Source: a virus (taxonomy: Duplodnaviria > Heunggongvirae > Uroviricota > Caudoviricetes). Taken from it: a DNA stretch of 24,811 bases. Below the pieces are notes generated by a model. It was not told the origin of the DNA. It searched no databases and saw only the letters and a program-made list of their open reading frames with translations. Both the position numbers and the translations under genes were made by a program. Of the stretch, positions 1 through 24,811 are shown piece after piece; within the stretch, counting starts at the first letter, position 1, and every line of letters starts with the position of its first letter. The stretch lies in IMG/VR virus record IMGVR_UViG_2537561977_000030, positions 1 through 24,811 of that record; one strand, 5' to 3'.

Positions 1-581
1 TTACAACTCAGCTTGAGTTTGAAGTTCCTCTACAGGGTGATAACGATAAATCGTCGATATACCGATATCGTAAATAATTGCCAACTGTTTCCTGCTATAG
101 CCATTTTTGATCAGCCTTGCTATTTGTTCATGTTGCTCTTTTGTCAGTTTCGGACGACGTCCACCAATACGCCCCTGTGCACGTGCTGCTGCCAGTCCGG
201 CCAGTGTACGCTCTACAATTAATTCACGTTCCATTTCGGCTAAAGCCCCCATGACGTGAAAAAGAAACGCCCCATGGGTGTTGATGTGTCAATGCTGTCC
301 GTCAGACTACGGAAATTAACACCTTTTTCCCGCAATTCCTCAATAAGCGTGATCAGGTGTTTCATACTTCTGCCCAGTCTGTCCAGCTTCCAGACAACCA
401 GCGTATCTCCTTCTGATAGCGTTCTGAGCAGTTTTTTCAATCCCGGTCTGGCTGATTTCGTTCCGCTGATTTTATCTTCAAAAATCAGTTCACATCCTGC
501 GCAGTTCAGTGCATTGCGTTGTAAATCCGTGTTCTGGTCATTTGTTGACACACGAATATAGCCAATTTGCATAAAAAACAT
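1..581 (-). pseudogene. Serine DNA invertase (Hin/Gin/Pin/Cin family) split by a 1-nt frameshift
   Basis: ORF 240-581 gives an N-terminal resolvase catalytic domain (IGYIRVSTNDQNTDLQRNAL...VVWKLDRLGRSMKHL...SLTDSIDTSTPMGRFFF). ORF 1-252 in another frame gives the C-terminal part (MGALAEMERELIVERTLAGLAAARAQGRIGGRRPKLT...). Adding one A to the A5 run at 259-263 restores a continuous ...MGRFFFHVMGALAEMERE... reading, as in Gin/Pin. Confidence 0.85.
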
Positions 582-586
582 CCTCT

Positions 587-1663
587 TTGTTTCGTGAAAA
601 ATACATAGTTGGTATAGGTAGGGATAAAGACGAAAACGTTGGTTTACAGGAAACGGTAAACAAGGCTGATAACGCTGTCCAAAAGACAGGCGATACCTTG
701 TCCGGTGGACTTACTTTTGAAAACGACTCAATCCTTGCCTGGATTCGGAATACTGACTGCGCGAAGATTGGATTTAAAAATGATGCCGACAGCGACACTG
801 ATTCATACATGTGGTTTGAAACAGGCGACAACGGCAATGAATATTTCAAATGGAGACACCGCATCATTGGCACCCGGCCTAAAGACCTGATGAATCTTAA
901 ATGGAATGCTTTGTCTGTTCTTGTTGAAGCCCTTTTCAGCAGTGAAGTGAAAATATCGACAGTCAATGCACTGAGGATATTTAATTCATCTTTTGGTGCC
1001 ATTTTTCGTCGTTCTGAAGAATGCCTGCATATCATCCCTACACGAGAGAATGAGGGAGAAAATGGTAATATAGGGCCATTACGCCCCTTTACGCTTAATC
1101 TCAGAACTGGCCGGATAAGCATGGGGCATGGTCTTGATGTTACAGGGGATATATTTGCAAACCGTTTTGCAATTAACAGTAGTACCGGCATGTGGATTCA
1201 TATGCGTGACCAGAATGTTATTTTGGGACGTAATGCGGTATCCACTGATGGTGCTCAGGCTTTGCTCCGTCAGGACCATGCCGACCGCAAATTTATGATT
1301 GGCGGTCTGGGAAATAAGCAATTTGGCATCTACATGATTAATAACTCAAGGACAGCCAATGGCACCGATGGTCAGGCGTACATGGATAATAACGGGAACT
1401 GGCTTTGCGGCTCGCAAGTTATTCCCGGCAACTATGGCAATTTTGATTCCAGATATGTGAAAGATGTTCGACTTGGTTCACAGCAATATTATGGAGTGAA
1501 CAACTGGCAAACATGGAATTTTCAGTGCCCGTCAGGCTATGTACTGACGGGGATTAACGTACAGGATACCGGAAAAAACTCTGCCGATAATATTGCAGGC
1601 GTTCATTACAGGCCAGTGCAAAAGTATATAAATGGCACTTGGTATAATGTGGCGAGTATTTAA
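587..1663 (+). CDS. Alternative tail-fibre C-terminal cassette (S'v-like), silent in this orientation; the exchangeable part is about 640-1663
   Basis: Translation contains [36 protein letters not shown]... and ends [11 protein letters not shown], paralleling the C-terminus of the minus-strand fibre (INGTWYNAGSI). It starts at the crossover site and has no constant N-terminal part of its own. Confidence 0.7.
627..652. other. hix/gix-like 26-bp recombination site A (invertase crossover site)
   Basis: Plus strand AAGACGAAAACG TT GGTTTACAGGAA. Its reverse complement TTCCTGTAAACC AA CGTTTTCGTCTT shares a 14-bp arm plus core with site B at 3702-3727, in inverted orientation. Confidence 0.7.
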
Positions 1664-1664
1664 T

Positions 1665-2192
1665 ATGATGCACTTAAAGAACATAAAAGCAGGTAATGCT
1701 AAAACAGTGGAGCAGTATGAGTTAACAAAGAAGCACGGAGTCATCTGGCTTTACTCTGAGGACGGAAAAAACTGGTATGAGGAAGTGAAGAACTTTCAGC
1801 CAGACACAATAAAGATTGTTTACGATGCAAATAATATTATTGTCGCCATCACCAAAGATGCCTCCACGCTTAACCCTGAAGGTTATAGCGTCGTTGAGGT
1901 TTCTGATATTACAGCTAATCGTCGTGCTGATGATTCCGGTAAGTGGATGTTTAAGGACGGAGCTGTGGTTAAACGGATTTATACGGCTGACGAACAGCAA
2001 CAACAGGCCGAATCACAAAAGGCCGCATTGCTTTCCGAAGCTGAATCAGTCATCCAGCCGCTGGAACGCGCTGTCAGGCTGAATATGGCGACGGACGAGG
2101 AACGCACACGACTGGAAGCATGGGAACGCTACAGTGTTCTGGTCAGCCGTGTGGATACGGCAAAGCCAGAATGGCCACAAAAGCCTGAGTAA
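1665..2192 (+). CDS. Tail-fibre assembly protein, alternative copy (U'-like)
   Basis: The N-terminus [23 protein letters not shown]...[13 protein letters not shown]...NFQPDT parallels the minus-strand U-like protein. ATG lies 2 nt after the S'v stop. Confidence 0.8.
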
Positions 2193-2197
2193 AAATT

Positions 2198-2217
2198 AAG
2201 GCCCGATATCGGGCCTT
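2198..2217. terminator. Bidirectional hairpin between convergent U' and U genes
   Basis: Perfect 20-bp palindrome AAGGCCCGATATCGGGCCTT, flanked by an A-run on one side and a T-rich stretch on the other, at the centre of the invertible segment. Confidence 0.5.
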
Positions 2218-2220
2218 GTT

Positions 2221-2754
2221 TCATTCTGGTTGTTCGGGAAACGTTACTGGCAGGCTGGAGGTGTCTGTGGATTCGACCTTCTGCGCATAGAGCATCCACT
2301 CGGTTAATTTTTGTTTATTCTCGTCGGAAATAATGCCCAGCCGTAGCTGTGAGTCCCACAGCTGGGTTTTATCCCTGACGAGCTGTAGCAGGCTTTGCTT
2401 TTCATTTTCCGCTTGTTGCCTCTGCTCTTCCCCGGTATAAGTTCGCTTTATCACTACGCCATCTTTGAACATCCATTTACCTGAAATATCAGCCCGGCGA
2501 TTTGCTGTAATATCAGGAACCTCAACGACGCTTGCGCCTTCCGGATTAATTGCTGAAACATCCTTTTCAATACAAATAATAACGCCGTTGTGGTCATAGA
2601 CCATTTTCAACGTATCAGGCTGAAAGTTCTTTTGTTCCTCATACCAGTTTTTCCCATCCTCTGTATAAAGCCATTTGATGTTAAATTGCTTTGTTAGCTG
2701 GTATTGCTCTTTTGTTTCAGGATTACCAGCAGAAATGTTTTTTAAGTGCATCAT
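2221..2754 (-). CDS. Tail-fibre assembly protein (Mu U / P2 G-like)
   Basis: 177-aa ORF MMHLKNISAGNPETKEQYQLTKQ...[13 protein letters not shown]...; start is 2 nt after the fibre stop. Confidence 0.85.
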   Translation of the reverse strand: MMHLKNISAGNPETKEQYQLTKQFNIKWLYTEDGKNWYEEQKNFQPDTLKMVYDHNGVIICIEKDVSAINPEGASVVEVPDITANRRADISGKWMFKDGVVIKRTYTGEEQRQQAENEKQSLLQLVRDKTQLWDSQLRLGIISDENKQKLTEWMLYAQKVESTDTSSLPVTFPEQPE

Positions 2755-2756
2755 CG

Positions 2757-4045
2757 TTAAATACTCCCCGCGTTATACCACGTCCCATTAATGCAATACT
2801 GAATTGGCCTTGCCTGTGTTGTATCAATTAATTCATCACGGTTTCCGTTAACTGAACCCGTAACGACATAACCTGACCTGTCAGACCATCCGGGACCATT
2901 CCATGTCTGAACAGATGACAGACCGCCCAGGCGAATACCTGTAATAAACCTTGAGTTACATTCTGCCTGCGTGTATGCACCAACATCTCCCGCTGATGGC
3001 TTACGTGTTGTGGTGTAGAATTCTGACCAGTCAGCCTCAAATCCATAACCATCACGCGCTGAACGATAAAAAATACCGCCGTTCTTATAATTCACACGGA
3101 ACTGTACGGCAGGGCAACTCCCCGTATTCATATTGAAGTGGAGTATTAATGCTGTTGCGCCTTTGATATCTGCATCATAAACACCGCTATTCCAGTTCCA
3201 GCCAACAGCTTTATCATTTGCAACCCTGCTTCCTGTTTGCCCTAAAGCAAATGCAGGCTGCTGGTTTTTCGTGTTGTAGTCTCGTCGCCAGCCAGGAGCG
3301 TAAGCATCACCATGATTAATATAGGTGAATTGAGCGTTAGTGATTCCGCCGCCGCTGGACGTGCCCGGCGTGGTAACGCGTATGGTCATTGCGCCACGAG
3401 TGCCAGTAACTTCCACAACAGCACCTGCAAGACAAATATTTCCGCAACCTGTATCTGTAATGACCTTATTATTTGCATAAGCCCATGAGCCTTTGCACAT
3501 CCAGTAAGGATGGTTAAATGCCCCCTGACTCTCCAGCCACGAAATAAATTGCGCAGTTGTCCAGACCTGACTATCGCCACCAATATCCACCCATGCGCTA
3601 TATGCGCGACAGGCACCAATATTTTTGGTGAAGGTATCTTTTCCTGGAATATCTGCGCCGTTCTGGTTTTTCTGTAATGCGCCAGAAGCCTGATTTATCG
3701 CTTCCTGTAAACCAAGGTTTTTGACAAACAGCGCAGGATCAGGAATATCTGCGCCGTTCTGGTCTTTAGCCAGCTTTTCCGCCAGCTTGTTCAGTACCGT
3801 AGTCGCAAAGTTTGGATCATTACCGAGAGCGTCAGCCAGCTCTTTAAGCGTATCCAGTGTCTCAGGGGCGCTGCCTGCAAGTGCCGCAAGTGCTTTGGCC
3901 ACAAACTCCGTTGTCGCCAGCTTTTTGCTGTTATCGCCATTTGCAGGTGTAGGTGCTGTTGGTGTGCCGGTGAATGCCGGACTGGCTTTCTGTGCGTACC
4001 GGGTATGCGGGTCTGCTGCCGCGATGTGTTTCGCAAGGTCAGCCC
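2757..4045 (-). pseudogene. Tail-fibre gene, C-terminal portion (constant part to 3716, variable Sv part 3715-2757), severed from its start by the IS
   Basis: Translation has tail-fibre hallmarks (GADLAKHIAAADPHTRYAQKASPAFTGTPTAPTPANGDNSKKLATTEFV...NLGLQE...INGTWYNAGSI). The ORF in the track (2757-4169) takes its first 41 codons from inside the IS. Confidence 0.8.
3702..3727. other. hix/gix-like 26-bp recombination site B inside the tail-fibre ORF
   Basis: TTCCTGTAAACC AA GGTTTTTGACAA closely resembles hixL (TTCTTGAAAACCAAGGTTTTTGATAA) and encodes N-L-G-L-Q-E on the minus strand. Confidence 0.75.
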
Positions 4046-5339
4046 CTGAGGAATCCCCAGAAAACAAGACAGGCATAGTGAGATGTGATCTAATTGATTG
4101 TGCTAACAATTTCAAGGAGATCACCACTATGCCTGCACGTTCATTATGCCAAAATTTCCTTAACAACATACTGGCCCCTTTGCATCTTTACCGTCAAAAA
4201 TCACTGATTGACGCAACTAATGCTGTAATAAATGGCGCTTCCCTCACACTTACCAGTATCGGGCGTCATTTAACCGGTACGGCATCAGTTAAAAACAAAA
4301 TAAAGCGGGTGGATCGACTGTTGGGGAATCGACATTTGCAAAATGAGGTTTCCACCATTTTTCAGCGAATTACCCAAAAGATTACGCGGGGAATGTCTCG
4401 TGTTGTGATACTCATTGACTGGAGTGCTTATCATGCCTCTCGTTTTCAGCTTTTGCGGGCAAGCCTGGCATGTGACGGGCGTTCTTTACCGTTGATGAGT
4501 TGTGTCGTTCCATCATCACAGACAGCGAATGCAGATGTACATGAGCGTTTTCTGGAATCGCTTGCTGAGTGCTTTTCCCCCGGGACTGATGTCATTGTTA
4601 TTACAGATGCCGGTTTTCAGGGGCGATGGTTCCAACAGCTCCGCTCCCGTGGCTGGACCTATATTTGCCGGGTACTGGGCAATCATTATTACAATGTTGG
4701 TAATGGCTGGGAAAAGGTGTCGGACTCAGGCACAAAAGCATCAACGACAGCAATTTATTTAGGTGAAGGCCTGCTGGGTCGAGATAAAAATGCACAACAT
4801 GAAGGGCATTTTTATCTTTATAAAAGTAAGCCTAAAGGTCGTAGATTTAAACGCTCGAAGGAAAGAGCAACCAGACCATCGGTGACGGCTAAAGCTCGTA
4901 CTGCCGGGAAATCACCATGGTTTATTTTCACAAACAGTACTGAGTTCTCGCCAAAACAGGTAATGAAATTATACAGCCGTAGAATGCAAATTGAGCAAAA
5001 TTTCAGGGATGAAAAAAATCCTCGCTGGGGATTTGGACTACGGTTTGGTGCCAGTCATTCATCCGGGCGGGTCACGGTATTGAGTCTGATCGCAACATTA
5101 GCCAGTATCATTATGTGGTTAAGCGGTTTCAGCCTGGAAAACAAAGGGATACATCATAAATATCAGGCAAATACAGTGAAGCACAGGCGAGTCATCTCGT
5201 TATTAAAACTGGCGGAGAATGTGATTCGACATTCTCCACTCATACTAAACACACTGTCACTTGACGCAGGGCTGAAAGTTCTACAGCAACGGTATACCAA
5301 TATGATAATGGTTTACTAAATTTTCTGGGGATCCCTCAG
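4046..5339 (+). mobile_element. IS4-family (IS10-group) insertion sequence, about 1.29 kb
   Basis: 19-bp terminal inverted repeats CTGAGGAATCCCCAGAAAA (4046-4064) and, reverse-complemented, CTGAGGGATCCCCAGAAAA (5321-5339). Flanked by direct repeat AGGTCAGCCC (4036-4045 and 5340-5349). One transposase ORF. Confidence 0.85.
4129..5319 (+). CDS. IS10-like DDE transposase (396 aa)
   Basis: ATG at 4129 preceded by AAGGAGA. Translation aligns with remembered IS10 transposase blocks (KRVDRLLGNRHL..., IVITDAGF..., YSRRMQIEQNFRDEK...). The upstream part of track ORF 3721-5319 is a read-in artefact. Confidence 0.85.
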   Translation: MPARSLCQNFLNNILAPLHLYRQKSLIDATNAVINGASLTLTSIGRHLTGTASVKNKIKRVDRLLGNRHLQNEVSTIFQRITQKITRGMSRVVILIDWSAYHASRFQLLRASLACDGRSLPLMSCVVPSSQTANADVHERFLESLAECFSPGTDVIVITDAGFQGRWFQQLRSRGWTYICRVLGNHYYNVGNGWEKVSDSGTKASTTAIYLGEGLLGRDKNAQHEGHFYLYKSKPKGRRFKRSKERATRPSVTAKARTAGKSPWFIFTNSTEFSPKQVMKLYSRRMQIEQNFRDEKNPRWGFGLRFGASHSSGRVTVLSLIATLASIIMWLSGFSLENKGIHHKYQANTVKHRRVISLLKLAENVIRHSPLILNTLSLDAGLKVLQQRYTNMIMVY

Positions 5340-5506
5340 AGGTCAGCCCCGCCTTTTTCAACCTGTTGCTTCAGGTACAGCGTGCGGCTGGCCAGTTGTT
5401 TACCCTGACGGTTAGAAATTCCGTCAGGTCCGCCCAGAACGGGGTCAGAGACCTCAATCTGGTAGATGCCGTTTTCCCACTGCGGGGTTTCGGGTAGATT
5501 TGCCAT
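5340..5506 (-). pseudogene. Tail-fibre gene, N-terminal fragment (about 55 codons) separated by the IS
   Basis: ATG at 5506 follows the gpI-like stop by 2 nt and reads MANLPETPQWENGIYQIEVSDPVLGGPDGISNRQGKQLASRTLYLKQQVEKGGAD. Removing 4046-5349 rejoins it in frame with 2757-4045. Confidence 0.75.
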
Positions 5507-8106: not shown

Positions 8107-9240
8107 TCACCGTCGATGTACTGCCATCCGGGTGATAAACCGTGAGTTTCTGAGTTTTTGTTTTTTCCCTCTTGTGACTGGCCCCCGTGCCACTTCCAGC
8201 TCGGTGGTGTAGCCGCTGTTACGCTCAAACGCATGGCGGGCAGTGGTTATGAGCCATGGCCCGGATAACTGTCCAAAGCCCACCAGTTCAATTTTGTTGC
8301 CTGCTGTCAGTTGAGGCGTTCCCGTCAGCGTCAGGGAGCCGTTCTGCTGATATTCGTTATGTCTGGCCAGTGCTGAATCCGCTTTAATCCGGGCACTGTC
8401 CGGGTCGCTGACGCGGCTGTTAACTTTAAGTGAGTCAGCGCTGGTAACCTTACCGCCTTTGAGCTTTTTGTCGCTTTCACGGGTACCACCATCAGCTTCG
8501 TAGACGATCAGTTTTTTACTGCTGCTTTTCTGGTGTTTTACCTTTGCAGATTTATAGACCCGGTTGATGGTGTCACGCAGGGAAAAGCGGGCCACATCCT
8601 GCGGTTTTAACTGCCTGACCGGCTCCTGACTGCGCAATGTGGCCAGATGAGAAAAAATCAACTGGTCACTGACCACTTTCACTGCATAACCATACCCGCT
8701 GGCCAGCCGGCGCAGAAAACCCACGTCGGTTTCAGCATACTGGGTCACCCGGTCGATTCTGATGGACTCAATGCTGCCCACCAGTTTCAGTCGGTGCTTT
8801 CTGGCAATCCGCCCCGCAACAGCTGCCAGCGTGGTGTTCTCAAAACCACGGCTGGATTTAGTCCGCAGAGCACTGTTAACCGAGGTGGCCACCCCACGGA
8901 TAGCGACAACGGACGCGGGCGAACTCACTTCGATCTCGTCTATTGAGAATGTACCGCAGGACAGCAGTTTCTCGCCCTGATAACCCATTTTCAGCGTCAG
9001 CGTGTCACCCTTGCCCGGATACCACTTATCCAGCCAGCGGCCATCGGTGTCGTCCAGCTCCACCTCAATGGTATCGGACTCATTTTTGATGTTATCGCTC
9101 CAGACCACACGGGTGACATAAGGCGCGATATCAGAGGTGATATTTTTCTGCAGATACCACAGCGTGAACACCGGCGTCAGCACCTCGCTGACGCCGGTTA
9201 ACGCTGATGTGGCTTGCGCAGTGCTGTTTATCTCAGCCAT
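8107..9240 (-). CDS. Tail/baseplate hub protein (P2 gpD / Mu gp44-like)
   Basis: 377 aa; C-terminal ...GNKIELVGFGQLSGPWLITTARHAFERNSGYTTELEV resembles the gpD family; position after X and U. Confidence 0.7.
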   Translation of the reverse strand: MAEINSTAQATSALTGVSEVLTPVFTLWYLQKNITSDIAPYVTRVVWSDNIKNESDTIEVELDDTDGRWLDKWYPGKGDTLTLKMGYQGEKLLSCGTFSIDEIEVSSPASVVAIRGVATSVNSALRTKSSRGFENTTLAAVAGRIARKHRLKLVGSIESIRIDRVTQYAETDVGFLRRLASGYGYAVKVVSDQLIFSHLATLRSQEPVRQLKPQDVARFSLRDTINRVYKSAKVKHQKSSSKKLIVYEADGGTRESDKKLKGGKVTSADSLKVNSRVSDPDSARIKADSALARHNEYQQNGSLTLTGTPQLTAGNKIELVGFGQLSGPWLITTARHAFERNSGYTTELEVARGPVTRGKKQKLRNSRFITRMAVHRR

Positions 9241-9443
9241 GGGGCAATATCCTCTTCTGTGCGGGCATCTTCAGCCTCAATAACCGGGATCAGTAACAAC
9301 ACCCCGGAGGGCAGCACCGGCGTAATGGCCACGTGCGGATTGGCGGCAATAATCCGGGGATAGCCCAGCGGGTCACCGTAGTACTGCCATGCCAGCGAAT
9401 CCCAGCGCTCTCCGTCACGGGTAATATGTTCAAGAAACATCAC
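9228..9443 (-). CDS. Tail protein X (small, LysM-like)
   Basis: 71-aa ORF between the U-like and D-like genes, overlapping both. Confidence 0.6.
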   Translation of the reverse strand: MMFLEHITRDGERWDSLAWQYYGDPLGYPRIIAANPHVAITPVLPSGVLLLIPVIEAEDARTEEDIAPWLR

Positions 9444-10324
9444 ACACTCCTCGTCAGTATTCTGGCGGCCATTGCACTTAATCCCGGAGACATGCGGTTG
9501 AATGCTGTGCCAGCGGCGTTAAGCTGCCCGGAAACGGTATCCAGAGCACCTGCAATATTTCTTTTGTCCACACCACTCAGCGCAGACTGCGCTTGCTGTA
9601 CATACGTGGCTGCCTCACTGGCTGTTCTGGCCAGACTGATGGCTTCGGGCATGGATTCAGAGAGTGCATTAAATGCCGGAACACTTTTCCCCAGAGCTCC
9701 GGATATATTACCCAGTCCGCTCATCAGTCCCGGCACACGGGTCAGTGCGACAACGGGGTTACCCTTCATTTTCTGCGCCACCCGAACAGCACTGATAGTG
9801 GTCTGGAGTACAGACTGCGCCTGTTTCGCACAGTTGACGCCGTTACGGACGAACTGCGCCACCCCGGAAGGCGATGGAACAGCACCAGATACGGCCCCGG
9901 CACCGGGAACCTGCCTGCGTATTGCCGGCGGTTGCAGAGGATTTTTCGGGTCACCGGTGTATTCCCGGAGAGACACGGTGGCACTGACAGCCAGCACGTT
10001 ACCGGTGCTGTCTGTCTGCTCACTGGTTGCGGTCACATCGGTAATCACGAACCAGCCGCGATAGTCACCGTTGCCGAAGACCAGTGCCAGTGCCTGATGG
10101 GCCTTCATGGCTGTTCGCACTCTCGCCAGCTCCACGTCGGGCACACAATAATGCTGATGGAAGACCAGGCTTATCTGGATTTCGTCCAGCCTGTCGCCGA
10201 CGAACTGCAGGCCGGGTTTACCCCCGATGCGGGCATGCTCCGCATAATCGACGCCGGACGTGGCCTCGAAGCCGTCCCAGTAGGTAATCAGCTCAAACTC
10301 AATATCACCCAGTACGGCAAACAT
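9440..10324 (-). CDS. Tail protein (P2 gpU-like / Mu N DNA-circulation N-terminal type)
   Basis: 294 aa; N-terminal FAVLGDIEFEL...RIGGKPGLQFVGDRLDEIQISL... resembles the gpU family. Start shares a base with the tape-measure stop. Confidence 0.55.
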   Translation of the reverse strand: MFAVLGDIEFELITYWDGFEATSGVDYAEHARIGGKPGLQFVGDRLDEIQISLVFHQHYCVPDVELARVRTAMKAHQALALVFGNGDYRGWFVITDVTATSEQTDSTGNVLAVSATVSLREYTGDPKNPLQPPAIRRQVPGAGAVSGAVPSPSGVAQFVRNGVNCAKQAQSVLQTTISAVRVAQKMKGNPVVALTRVPGLMSGLGNISGALGKSVPAFNALSESMPEAISLARTASEAATYVQQAQSALSGVDKRNIAGALDTVSGQLNAAGTAFNRMSPGLSAMAARILTRSV

Positions 10325-16764: not shown

Positions 16765-17103
16765 TCACACCCCGCGCAGGATACGAATGACGTCGCCTTC
16801 ACCCCCGGCTTCATCAAGTGCAATACCACAGGATTTACCGTCGCCGGACTGCGGCACGGCTCTGGCCTGAGCATCTGACTGAACAGCCACACCACTGCTG
16901 ACCGCAGCACCGGCCTCAACAGCAATAATGCCCAGAACGCTAACCGGCGTACTGTCGCCGGTAACAGCATCCACTTCGGCAACCCCGAGCGCTGCGGCAC
17001 CGGCTTTACAGGGGGTATTATCTGCCCCGACAAAACGCTGCTGTGCCAGTTCTGCCCCTGCCGTTACGGTTGTGATCAGAATGACCTGCTGAGTGGTTCC
17101 CAT
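16765..17103 (-). CDS. Small Ala/Gly/Val-rich head protein (DUF2190-like, possible decoration protein)
   Basis: 112 aa; strong Shine-Dalgarno TAAGGAGG 4 nt before the ATG; composition typical of DUF2190-type proteins. Confidence 0.5.
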   Translation of the reverse strand: MGTTQQVILITTVTAGAELAQQRFVGADNTPCKAGAAALGVAEVDAVTGDSTPVSVLGIIAVEAGAAVSSGVAVQSDAQARAVPQSGDGKSCGIALDEAGGEGDVIRILRGV

Positions 17104-17112
17104 AACGCCTCC

Positions 17113-17484
17113 TTATTTACTGATACCGGTGATGAGATACCCGGCATCGCCACCCACCACGGCGACTTTGTAGATATCGGTATAACGGCAGTACTTCACC
17201 TTGCCGCCGGCCCCGTCGTATTTGTCTGCAACAGGCATCCCCTTACGACGCAGGGTGTAGCCGAAGGACGGCTCGTTCTCGTCCGCGCTGTCCGCCCCGA
17301 CGGCACGCTCGGTGTCATATTCCACAAAGGCGGTTTTTCCGAAGGTCGGTACACGCACGCCTTCCTTGTCCGTCAGCACGACGGGGAAAATACGTTCGCC
17401 GATGAATGCAGCATTTTTATAGCCACGGGCGATACTGGTCAGTACCGGATCAACGACACGTTTACCTTTTAAGTAATCAGACAT
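17113..17484 (-). CDS. Hypothetical 123-aa head-region protein
   Basis: ORF between the protease/scaffold and the DUF2190-like gene; no family recognised. Confidence 0.45.
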   Translation of the reverse strand: MSDYLKGKRVVDPVLTSIARGYKNAAFIGERIFPVVLTDKEGVRVPTFGKTAFVEYDTERAVGADSADENEPSFGYTLRRKGMPVADKYDGAGGKVKYCRYTDIYKVAVVGGDAGYLITGISK

Positions 17485-20111: not shown

Positions 20112-21108
20112 GCAGACGCCCCCAGATATTTGCCACAAAGAGAATGCGGGCCAGCCGTTCCTGCAGATCGTCCGTGTTCATCTGAGGGTAGAGCTCCGCC
20201 AGTTCGCCCAGCAGCTCAGACGGGTTAACCCCATTTTCGACCCGCTTAAACAGAGGTGCCAGGACGGGTTCCAGCGTGCCATTTAACGCGCCTCCGTTCA
20301 TCAGAATGTCCAGCGCGTCGTCAAGCTGCTGCTGAGCCTGAATATCGGCATCAATCGCCTCGGCAAATGACAGCGGCAACATGTTCTTCTCGCGTTCTGA
20401 CGGTGGTGTCTCGTCAATATCGCCGTCCTGCAGCTGGTACTCACGCTTAAAGTATTGCGGGGTCAGACGCAGACCCGCCCGGGTGAGTTTTTCGTCGCGG
20501 GTGGCACGGGTGTCATCAATGGCCTCCTGTTCCCACATGGCCCAGACCGGACACGGCACATCGCCGAAGTTCAGGGTGACCACCGTTCTGATGACCTGAT
20601 TCACTGCCGCCTGAATGATGTCCGCATCCGCATCGCGGATATCAGCCGTTACCTCCAGCCCGGCCTGTGCAGAGGCCTTGTTACTGTTCGCTTCCGTGGT
20701 CTGATTCTGACCGAGTAATGCAATGGAGATCTCACTGCGTGACAGCGTGATCAGCTCGCGGAATACCTCGCTGCTGTCCGCCTTGCCATCCGCGGCTTTG
20801 AGTTCGATGCTGCTGTCATCGGGGATGGCGGCCACCGCGTCCTCCACCATCTGCTCCATGGAGTCCAGCAGTTTTTCAATCTCTGCATCATTTGCACCCC
20901 TCGGGTGCTTACCGATCACCCACGGGGAGCCAAACTTTTCGGCAAAGCGGAGCCAGAATTTCATCCCGCCTTTCTTGAAGGCGACCGGCCAGAAGCACAT
21001 GGACAGATCCGGAAAACCGTAAGGATTGTCATAGGATGCATCCTGTGCCGGCACCACGAATTTTGACGGTGACAACAGCTCACCCTCCACACCCGCATCA
21101 CGTGCCCG
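20092..21108 (-). pseudogene. Portal protein (Mu gp29 / DUF935-type), N-terminally truncated remnant
   Basis: About 335 codons where DUF935 portals run about 500. An in-frame stop lies immediately upstream at 21109-21111, and there is no credible start or ribosome-binding site. Confidence 0.65.
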
Positions 21109-21738: not shown

Positions 21739-21955
21739 ATGGCTGACATACTCAGGGAAATCACCGCATGGACACTGATTCTTACTGGCCTGGCGACATG
21801 CCTCAGTACGGGGGGCAGCCCTGGCTGCCCTGCTGATGCACATAACAACACAGTGGTTATGGGAAAAGCTTAAAGCAGCATACAGCCTGAAAGAGCTGTC
21901 CGACGCTGTCCGGGCATGGAAACGGCAGAAAAATACCGGAGATACTGAACAATGA
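21739..21955 (+). pseudogene. Small membrane-protein gene apparently frameshifted at a G6 run
   Basis: ATG at 21739 with a GGGAGG ribosome-binding site reads MADILREITAWTLILTGLA... The downstream frame, which ends in a TGA overlapping the next gene's ATG (ATGA), is reached by removing one G from 21810-21815. Confidence 0.35.
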
Positions 21956-24217: not shown

Positions 24218-24811
24218 ATGTTTGATGCATCCTTGCTGAATCTGCCATGGGCAACGCTGGTGACGCTCACCAGTGGTTATATCGGCTATTTTATTGCGAA
24301 CGTGGGGCTGAAGAACCATCACAAACCCATTGAGGTGACGTTTTCGACGCTGATTTTTGGTTTGCTGTCAATGATGGTTTACCAGGCTGTTATGTGGGCA
24401 GGTCTGAATTCGTGGCTGGCGACACCTCCAACACTTCTTTGCGCTTTTGCATACGCTGCATTATGGAGAAAATATGGGCGTAAATGGATGTACAGATTCC
24501 TCAGAAATAAGGATATATCATGGTCTGATGATACCCCCTCTGCCTGGATGCGTATGTTTGATCAACATGGATACTATATCAGCGAGGCGTATGTCTATCT
24601 GAAGAATGGTACTGTGCTGCTTTCTGAAAATCCGGGGAAATTTGAAGGCCAGGCCAGCGGTTCTTTTGTGTTAGGAGTGGAAAAAGACATAGTGATGTAT
24701 GTCACTCATGAAAAAAACCGGGGCGCGATGAATGGATTGAAAAAGATGTTGAAAGTAAAAGCTGGGGAGCGATGGCAACCTATATCCCTGCAGATCAGAT
24801 TGCCATGGTGA
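24218..24811 (+). CDS. Hypothetical membrane protein (197 aa; N-terminal transmembrane helices plus soluble C-terminal domain)
   Basis: GGAGGA ribosome-binding site before the ATG; hydrophobic N-terminus; stop is the last codon of the window. Confidence 0.6.
   Translation: MFDASLLNLPWATLVTLTSGYIGYFIANVGLKNHHKPIEVTFSTLIFGLLSMMVYQAVMWAGLNSWLATPPTLLCAFAYAALWRKYGRKWMYRFLRNKDISWSDDTPSAWMRMFDQHGYYISEAYVYLKNGTVLLSENPGKFEGQASGSFVLGVEKDIVMYVTHEKNRGAMNGLKKMLKVKAGERWQPISLQIRLPW

Follow-up and report, generated by a model that had tools for sequence, protein, structure and literature searches.

Is the DNA invertase gene that opens this stretch of phage DNA really split by a frameshift and, if so, is the tail fibre switch beside it locked in one orientation? 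The window, as we call the whole stretch of 24,811 nucleotides that was analysed, is 100% identical to contig ADUP01000053.1 of GCA_000188815.2, a draft assembly of 2011, and protein EFZ56235.1 identifies the strain as Escherichia coli LT-68. The initial annotation had left two explanations of the frameshift standing, a genuine slip that fixes the switch or a homopolymer sequencing error. Sister copies of the prophage carry A6 where the window has A5, A/T runs in the LT-68 draft are shortened in one direction, and the same truncation of UshA recurs in other drafts. On these grounds we read the frameshift as an artefact: very probably, a run of six A residues was called as five in the LT-68 draft, and the frameshift is absent from the DNA of the organism. 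Of the two explanations, the error is favoured by the sister genomes and the run-length bias, and the locking slip loses ground.

What does the split gene encode? Translation of the minus strand from 581 to 1 reads MFFMQIGYIRVSTNDQ...STPMGRFFFTSWGL*, and beyond this stop the frame is lost, the N-terminal open reading frame ending in MGRFFFTSWGL*. The open reading frame listing accordingly gives two minus-strand frames of different phase, 240..581 (113 aa) and 1..252 (83 aa). The conserved start of the invertase is the ATG at 572 (MQIGYIRV), from which a product of 110 aa is read (240..572); the gene as a whole, in its two frames, occupies 1..572 on the minus strand. Gene callers start at this ATG, which accounts for the finding that the 113-aa frame from 581 has no exact match in the protein collection. 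The 110-aa frame holds the catalytic domain with Ser9 (Pfam Resolvase, E 6e-39), and the C-terminal frame, which starts MGALAEMERE, holds the remainder of helix E and the HTH_7 domain (E 3.6e-14). The claim that the catalytic N-terminus and the DNA-binding C-terminus lie in different frames is therefore borne out by the translation and by the listing.

The frameshift site is a homopolymer at 259..263, A5 on the plus strand and T5 on the coding strand of the invertase, where the sisters and relatives have A6; we regard it as a probable undercall. It had been proposed that one A added to this run would recreate a Gin/Pin-type protein, and it does so: the two frames join into a single protein of 190 aa that has both the Resolvase domain (PF00239, E 1.5e-51) and HTH_7 (E 1.3e-13). 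A blastp comparison with the Mu proteins puts it at 75.6% identity to Mu Gin, and the sequences of the Gin structures 4M6F and 3UJ3 match it at E about 1e-91. The segment RVSTNDQ aligns with Ser9 of Gin, as is expected of the resolvase-type catalytic domain of the Din family. By sequence and predicted function, then, it belongs with the invertases of the Gin/Cin/Pin group. The frame breaks after residue 106, where helix E begins, and the T-run makes up codons 104-106. The 110-aa product lacks most of helix E and the entire DNA-binding domain and, from what is generally known of serine recombinases, should be inactive. The exact restored protein is found on at least 1000 contigs, versus 42 contigs of the protein collection for the exact 110-aa product, and the run is T6 in 59 of 59 IMG/VR matches.

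The gene is also a mosaic: over its 5' 386 nt it has the same sequence as the allele of P2-like prophages, and over its 3' 186 nt the same as the BcepMu-like allele found in strain 2014C-3075, which suggests recombination between resident invertase genes. A Fis-bound recombinational enhancer is to be expected in the 5' part of the gene, as in Gin and Hin. Might T5 have been inherited along with the P2-type 386-nt 5' haplotype, which is shared with the P2-like prophage L006? We rejected this possibility, since the same haplotype has T6 in many IMG/VR contigs.

The prophage itself is of the BcepMu-like (PhiKM-like, Bcepmuvirus) transposable type, here in E. coli and with a P2-type tail. In strain 2014C-3075 a relative is present complete, at about 37 kb: one strand carries the genes for the invertase, the fibre, the baseplate, the tail, the head and lysis, and the opposite strand those for the regulators and the transposase together with gam, gemA and mor. 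The LT-68 prophage interrupts the host gene aes, with the phage end 78 bp past the stop codon of the invertase; set against an uninterrupted aes, the host sequences on either side have 7 bp in common.

How do other copies of this prophage read at the frameshift site? The same prophage is present at the same host junction (aes fragment, hemH, adk) in CP065611.1 (L096) and UFYN01000002.1 (L098), which are 99.8-99.9% identical to the window over 17.3 kb. Both have A6 in the invertase and encode the intact protein as one 190-aa polypeptide, so that the HTH_7 domain, which is in a different frame from the catalytic domain in the window, is continuous with it in the sisters; both also encode a gpD of 384 aa. 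Over the invertase gene the window differs from L096 by 0 substitutions. The only indels in these two comparisons are three single-base homopolymer gaps, with the window shorter in each: A6 to A5 in the invertase, C6 to C5 in the insertion sequence ISEc60, and T6 to T5 in gene D. Closer still are AATFNZ010000035.1 and the Logan assembly of SRR2994196, which have both internal deletions as in the window and show 0 substitutions over 6.9 kb and 1 over 13.9 kb. The contigs of these closest sisters end at the IS, with the invertase lying outside them. They too differ from the window by single-base gaps, at 8155 (T6 to T5) and at 24711 (A8 to A7).

These last two gaps mark what are probably a second and a third undercall. 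The T5 run at 8155..8159, in the gene D homologue, is T6 in four sister assemblies and three further relatives; it changes the last 26 residues of gpD, and the resulting 377-aa form occurs only in the LT-68 record, the restored 384-aa form being found on 24 contigs. The A7 run at 24711..24717, in the last phage gene, is A8 in four sister assemblies, and its product is 197 aa rather than 214 aa. The false stop that this run creates sets the end of the window. The 77-aa, 320-aa and 358-aa products, like the 377-aa one, have exact matches in the LT-68 record only.

The remaining gap reads the other way. C5 at 4577-4581 in ISEc60 gives an intact transposase of 431 aa in the window, and the copies of the element at this site in CP065611.1 and UFYN01 have C6 and a split reading frame (263 + 153 aa in UFYN01). 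Either the sister copy has mutated, or the IS sequence in LT-68 is a consensus of many copies; related closed genomes have 36-38 copies of ISEc60 each. Since C5 is here the reading that gives an intact gene, it is clear from the comparison that not every difference is an LT-68 error.

Is the shortening peculiar to the phage DNA? When the window and its host flanks are compared with their closest relatives, there are eight one-base differences, and in each the run is one base shorter in LT-68. Seven of the eight are A/T runs with a true length of 6-8, and the genes hit are ushA, ybaK, gene D, the last phage gene and the invertase. In the host DNA, 9.6 kb of flank that is 99.9% identical to the closed genome CFSAN004176 differs from it by 7 substitutions and 4 one-base gaps. 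The four gaps are A/T runs of 6, 7, 7 and 8, all shortened in LT-68 (positions 16997, 18344, 18396 and 18431 of L026, the source contig with its host flank); two of them break genes, splitting ushA into frames of 306 and 244 aa and truncating ybaK. The same excess of four bases is found in seven of the eight top closed genomes, and, against those seven, ushA and ybaK are broken in LT-68 only.

The effect grows with the length of the run. In the host flanks no A/T run of length 4-5 is shortened (0/166), versus 1 of 20 runs of six, 2 of 5 runs of seven and the single run of eight (1/1); no G/C run in the flanks is shortened. The prophage has 13 A/T runs of six, and two of them are a base short. 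For A/T runs of six or more the proportion is about 15%, or about one in seven, in host flanks and prophage alike. The changes are thus confined to homopolymers, depend on length and go in one direction, they are absent in independent assemblies, and they break conserved genes elsewhere in the same draft, all of which is the behaviour of an undercall artefact.

The truncation of UshA is especially telling. An identical truncated UshA of 306 aa is found in unrelated drafts of 2010-11, those of Shigella flexneri K-227 and E. coli 1827-70, and a near-identical truncated form in TA143. Such recurrence argues for a platform error rather than independent mutations. In our reading the gene encodes an ordinary serine invertase of the Gin/Pin type, which flips a Mu G-like fibre cassette between two gix-like sites, and its A6 was most probably read as A5 in the 2011 draft to give an apparent frameshift. 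The undercall would be the work of a flow-based (pyrosequencing-type) chemistry, a platform that we infer from the error pattern and the date. The likeness to undercalls of the 454 type extends to the restriction to homopolymers, the dependence on length, the shortening, the false frameshifts in conserved genes and the recurrence across drafts of the period. The case differs in that the platform used for LT-68 is a deduction, and in that a k-mer re-assembly of one run repeats A5.

That re-assembly, the Logan assembly of SRR040460, has A5 at the invertase and matches the draft exactly over 10 kb. The majority of the SRR040460 reads would thus support A5, and they are probably the same reads from which the draft was made. 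Truncated UshA is listed under Logan sources too, so that the agreement on A5 may only reproduce a systematic bias. For these two reasons we did not accept the re-assembly as an independent confirmation of A5.

One might think, nevertheless, that the LT-68 lineage has suffered a private slip, in which one A:T pair was lost and the invertase truncated after residue 106. This would be one more lesion of a decaying prophage, whose segment could then be flipped only by an invertase acting in trans. The prophage is demonstrably decaying, with an ISEc60 insertion and deletions of 570 bp and 15 kb that are shared with independent assemblies, and in so defective an element a private pseudogene is plausible on biological grounds; the same T6 to T5 change is genuine in a lineage of P2-like prophages; and the Logan re-assembly, as noted, also has A5. 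We nevertheless judge a private slip unlikely. With 0 substitutions between the window and L096 in the invertase, the mutation would have to be very recent, and it would have to be accompanied by deletions in the same direction in ushA, ybaK, gene D, the last gene and two intergenic runs, versus some 8-15 substitutions. A private slip also leaves the identical ushA truncation in unrelated drafts of the period to be accounted for. Nor does the decay of the prophage lend support to a genuine pseudogene, since the lesions are shared with the sisters and the one-base changes are not. Could LT-68 be a mutator strain deficient in mismatch repair? The ratio of indels to substitutions is far too high for this, and the same ushA change appears in unrelated drafts, so we set that explanation aside as well.

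A quite different reading would make the short run functional, either through recoding, in which a -1 ribosomal slip on UUU_UUC would let the T5 allele yield full-length invertase (...FFFHVMGAL...), or through a T5/T6 contingency switch that would control the fibre switch. As read from the sequence, a -1 slip after UUC UUU UUC does restore the wild-type residues. The T5 allele, moreover, is found on at least four DNA backgrounds, and the P2-like lineage that carries it has its fibre segment in both orientations. We find this reading extremely improbable all the same. Homologues are in frame with T6, in every one of the 59 IMG/VR matches and in all sister copies, and the contigs with the full-length protein far outnumber the 42 with the truncated one; C_UUU_UUC does not have the canonical X_XXY_YYZ form of a slippery heptamer; a run of 5-6 is below the typical length of a contingency tract; several of the T5 records belong to assemblies in which many genes are broken; and inversion in the T5 lineage is more simply ascribed to invertases of the Din family acting across systems.

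What, then, of the T5 alleles elsewhere? In the P2-like lineage T5 is found in many assemblies with intact neighbouring genes, and there are 15 further similar places. Two near-identical prophages of this E. coli lineage, L006 and L007, align without gaps over 20 kb, and both have the T5 frameshifted invertase. Reproduction of T5 across many assemblies whose neighbouring genes are intact indicates that in the L006/L007 lineage it is a true mutation. The two prophages carry a 1.76-kb fibre segment (locus 8177-9936) in opposite orientations. The Din invertases Gin, Cin, Pin and Hin are able to act on one another's sites, and the simplest explanation of the L006/L007 inversion is a cross-reactive Din-family invertase acting in trans. 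In the P1-like phages vB_EcoM-673R5 (L001 3001-3572) and vB_EcoM-813R1 the invertase is annotated as Hin1 plus Hin2 and has the same T5; this background is also found in the plasmid contigs L005 and L013. The P2-like pair and the P1-like phages resemble the window in having T5 at the same run, an identical 110-aa product and a separate C-terminal reading frame. The P2-like pair differs from it in that T5 is genuine there, whereas the sister copies of the window's own lineage have T6.

Does the T-run at codons 104-106 of the Din invertases form a natural slippage hotspot that has repeatedly given rise to invertase-dead prophages? Slippage there is genuine in at least one P2-like lineage, whose segment is nonetheless seen in both orientations, but we regard the general idea as very unlikely. 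If the A5 of LT-68 were real too, it would be a further independent hit, and one would then have to ask whether other invertases resident in the cell rescue such alleles in trans, or whether a low level of -1 slippage on UUU_UUC does so.

If the frameshift is very probably an undercall, as we prefer to think, is the LT-68 prophage otherwise sound? It is not. ISEc60, an element of the IS4 family, lies at 4046..5339 on the plus strand, with terminal inverted repeats and a match of 99.9-100% to annotated ISEc60. It interrupts the tail fibre gene after about codon 54-56 and is flanked by a 10-bp target duplication, AGGTCAGCCC, at 4036-4045 and 5340-5349. Upstream of the IS an orphan N-terminal fragment of the fibre gene, 56 codons long, remains at 5336..5506 on the minus strand, according to the gene calls of the source contig and translation. 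The insertion in the fibre gene is common to CP065611.1 and UFYN01000002.1.

Two deletions have removed further genes. The major capsid gene has lost about 570 bp, with a junction at 17287-17298 at a 12-bp repeat, which leaves a reading frame of 123 aa at 17113..17484. Other assemblies have this capsid remnant on 12 contigs, and in some of these prophages the portal is full-length; in CP065611.1 and UFYN01 the capsid gene is still intact (317 aa). The other deletion, of about 15 kb, has its junction at 21100-21108, with 9 bp of microhomology, and fuses the truncated portal gene to early genes. Lost with it are half of the portal gene, the terminase, lysis genes, regulators, the transposase, the adjoining B-like ATPase gene and gam. 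AATFNZ010000035.1 and the Logan assembly of SRR2994196 show both deletions, at the same chromosomal site and with no mismatch. Because these lesions recur in independent assemblies, we take the IS insertion and both deletions to be genuine and clonally inherited in one E. coli lineage. Judged by its gene content, the prophage is dead for genuine reasons other than the frameshift.

A G6 run at 21810-21815, which is G5 in PhiKM and in strain 2014C-3075, disrupts an early gene of 71 aa. This second frameshift had been cited as making a sequencing error in the invertase plausible. It is indeed present in the window, but it does not serve as evidence of error: G6 is common to independent sister assemblies, which marks it as a genuine difference of the lineage.

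We turn to the switch itself. Positions 633-3721 of the window are homologous to the G segment of Mu. A gix-like crossover site of 26 bp adjoins the invertase at 627..652, marked by an inverted repeat and reading AAGACGAAAACG TT GGTTTACAGGAA, and another lies within the fibre gene at 3702..3727, where the reverse complement reads TTGTCAAAAACC TT GGTTTACAGGAA. Both have the core TT and the same relative orientation, as a pair of Din-family sites should. The Mu G-like invertible segment between them (653..3701) was recognised by blastp against the Mu proteins and by its inversion in the sister L098. On the plus strand is a silent set, made up of an S-variable part at 587..1663 (66.9% identical to S of Mu) and a U-like gene at 1632..2192 (U, 89.7%). 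In the expression position, on the minus strand, are a U'-like gene at 2221..2754 (U', 97.7%) and an Sv'-like part at 2757..~3701 (Sv', 93.5%). The plan is that of Mu G, with the constant N-terminus of the fibre outside the segment and two opposed C-terminal parts, each with its chaperone, inside it.

Has the switch been thrown in this lineage? The alignment of the window with L098 changes strand within 633-667 and again within 3687-3721, so that the segment is inverted in L098 relative to L096 and the window, and both orientations occur among the sister genomes. From this inversion it follows that the switch has been active in this prophage lineage. By its homology to Mu and in Mu nomenclature, the window is in a G(-)-like orientation. 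In the initial annotation a genuine slip would have fixed the orientation at Sv-U; by the same homology the cassette expressed is instead Sv'/U'.

The further suggestion, that the frameshift may lock the fibre switch, is not supported. The segment is inverted between L096 and L098, and in the other lineage, L006 and L007, where T5 is confirmed, both orientations are still seen. Loss of frame in the invertase is, taken alone, no sign that the segment is locked. In LT-68, moreover, ISEc60 cuts the constant part of the fibre, leaving the switch without an intact gene to act on, and the capsid, portal, terminase, lysis and transposase functions have been lost; the switch would merely toggle an IS-cut fibre gene in a prophage unable to make particles. 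Even if the frameshift were genuine, the inference of a locked switch would be weak, the more so as LT-68 may hold a second copy of the invertase, to which we return below.

How does the system compare with its relatives, Gin and the G segment of Mu, Cin and the C segment of P1, and Pin and the P segment of e14? The restored invertase shares with Gin the catalytic serine, the two domains and, as given above, three quarters of its residues. As in Mu, the invertase lies directly beside a segment of about 3 kb with two fibre C-terminal parts and two assembly-chaperone genes, the 26-bp sites have the conserved half-site GGTTTACAGGAA, and both orientations are seen. Unlike Mu, the phage in the window is BcepMu-like, with divergent early and late arms and a P2-type tail; it has no com/mom after the invertase, the prophage ending there instead; and its invertase, unlike Gin, is a mosaic and, as assembled, split. 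The genuine biology of the locus is ordinary rather than new, a Mu G-type switch on a BcepMu-like prophage put out of action by an IS insertion and two deletions. The main value of the case lies in quality control, as a warning about homopolymer errors in an early draft; the apparent pseudogenes of LT-68, namely the invertase, gene D, the last phage gene, ushA and ybaK, are not to be read as biology.

Two minor observations concern the neighbourhood of the switch. Logan contig L015 ends at window position 402, in the conserved N-terminal part of the invertase, and its other end is a REP element; these ends suggest that the LT-68 genome may hold a second invertase paralogue. Finally, of the 30 substitutions that separate the window from CP065611.1, 25 are crowded into some 500 bp of the silent S-variable cassette (1135-1639), as if recombination had replaced a patch of the receptor-binding part of the fibre.
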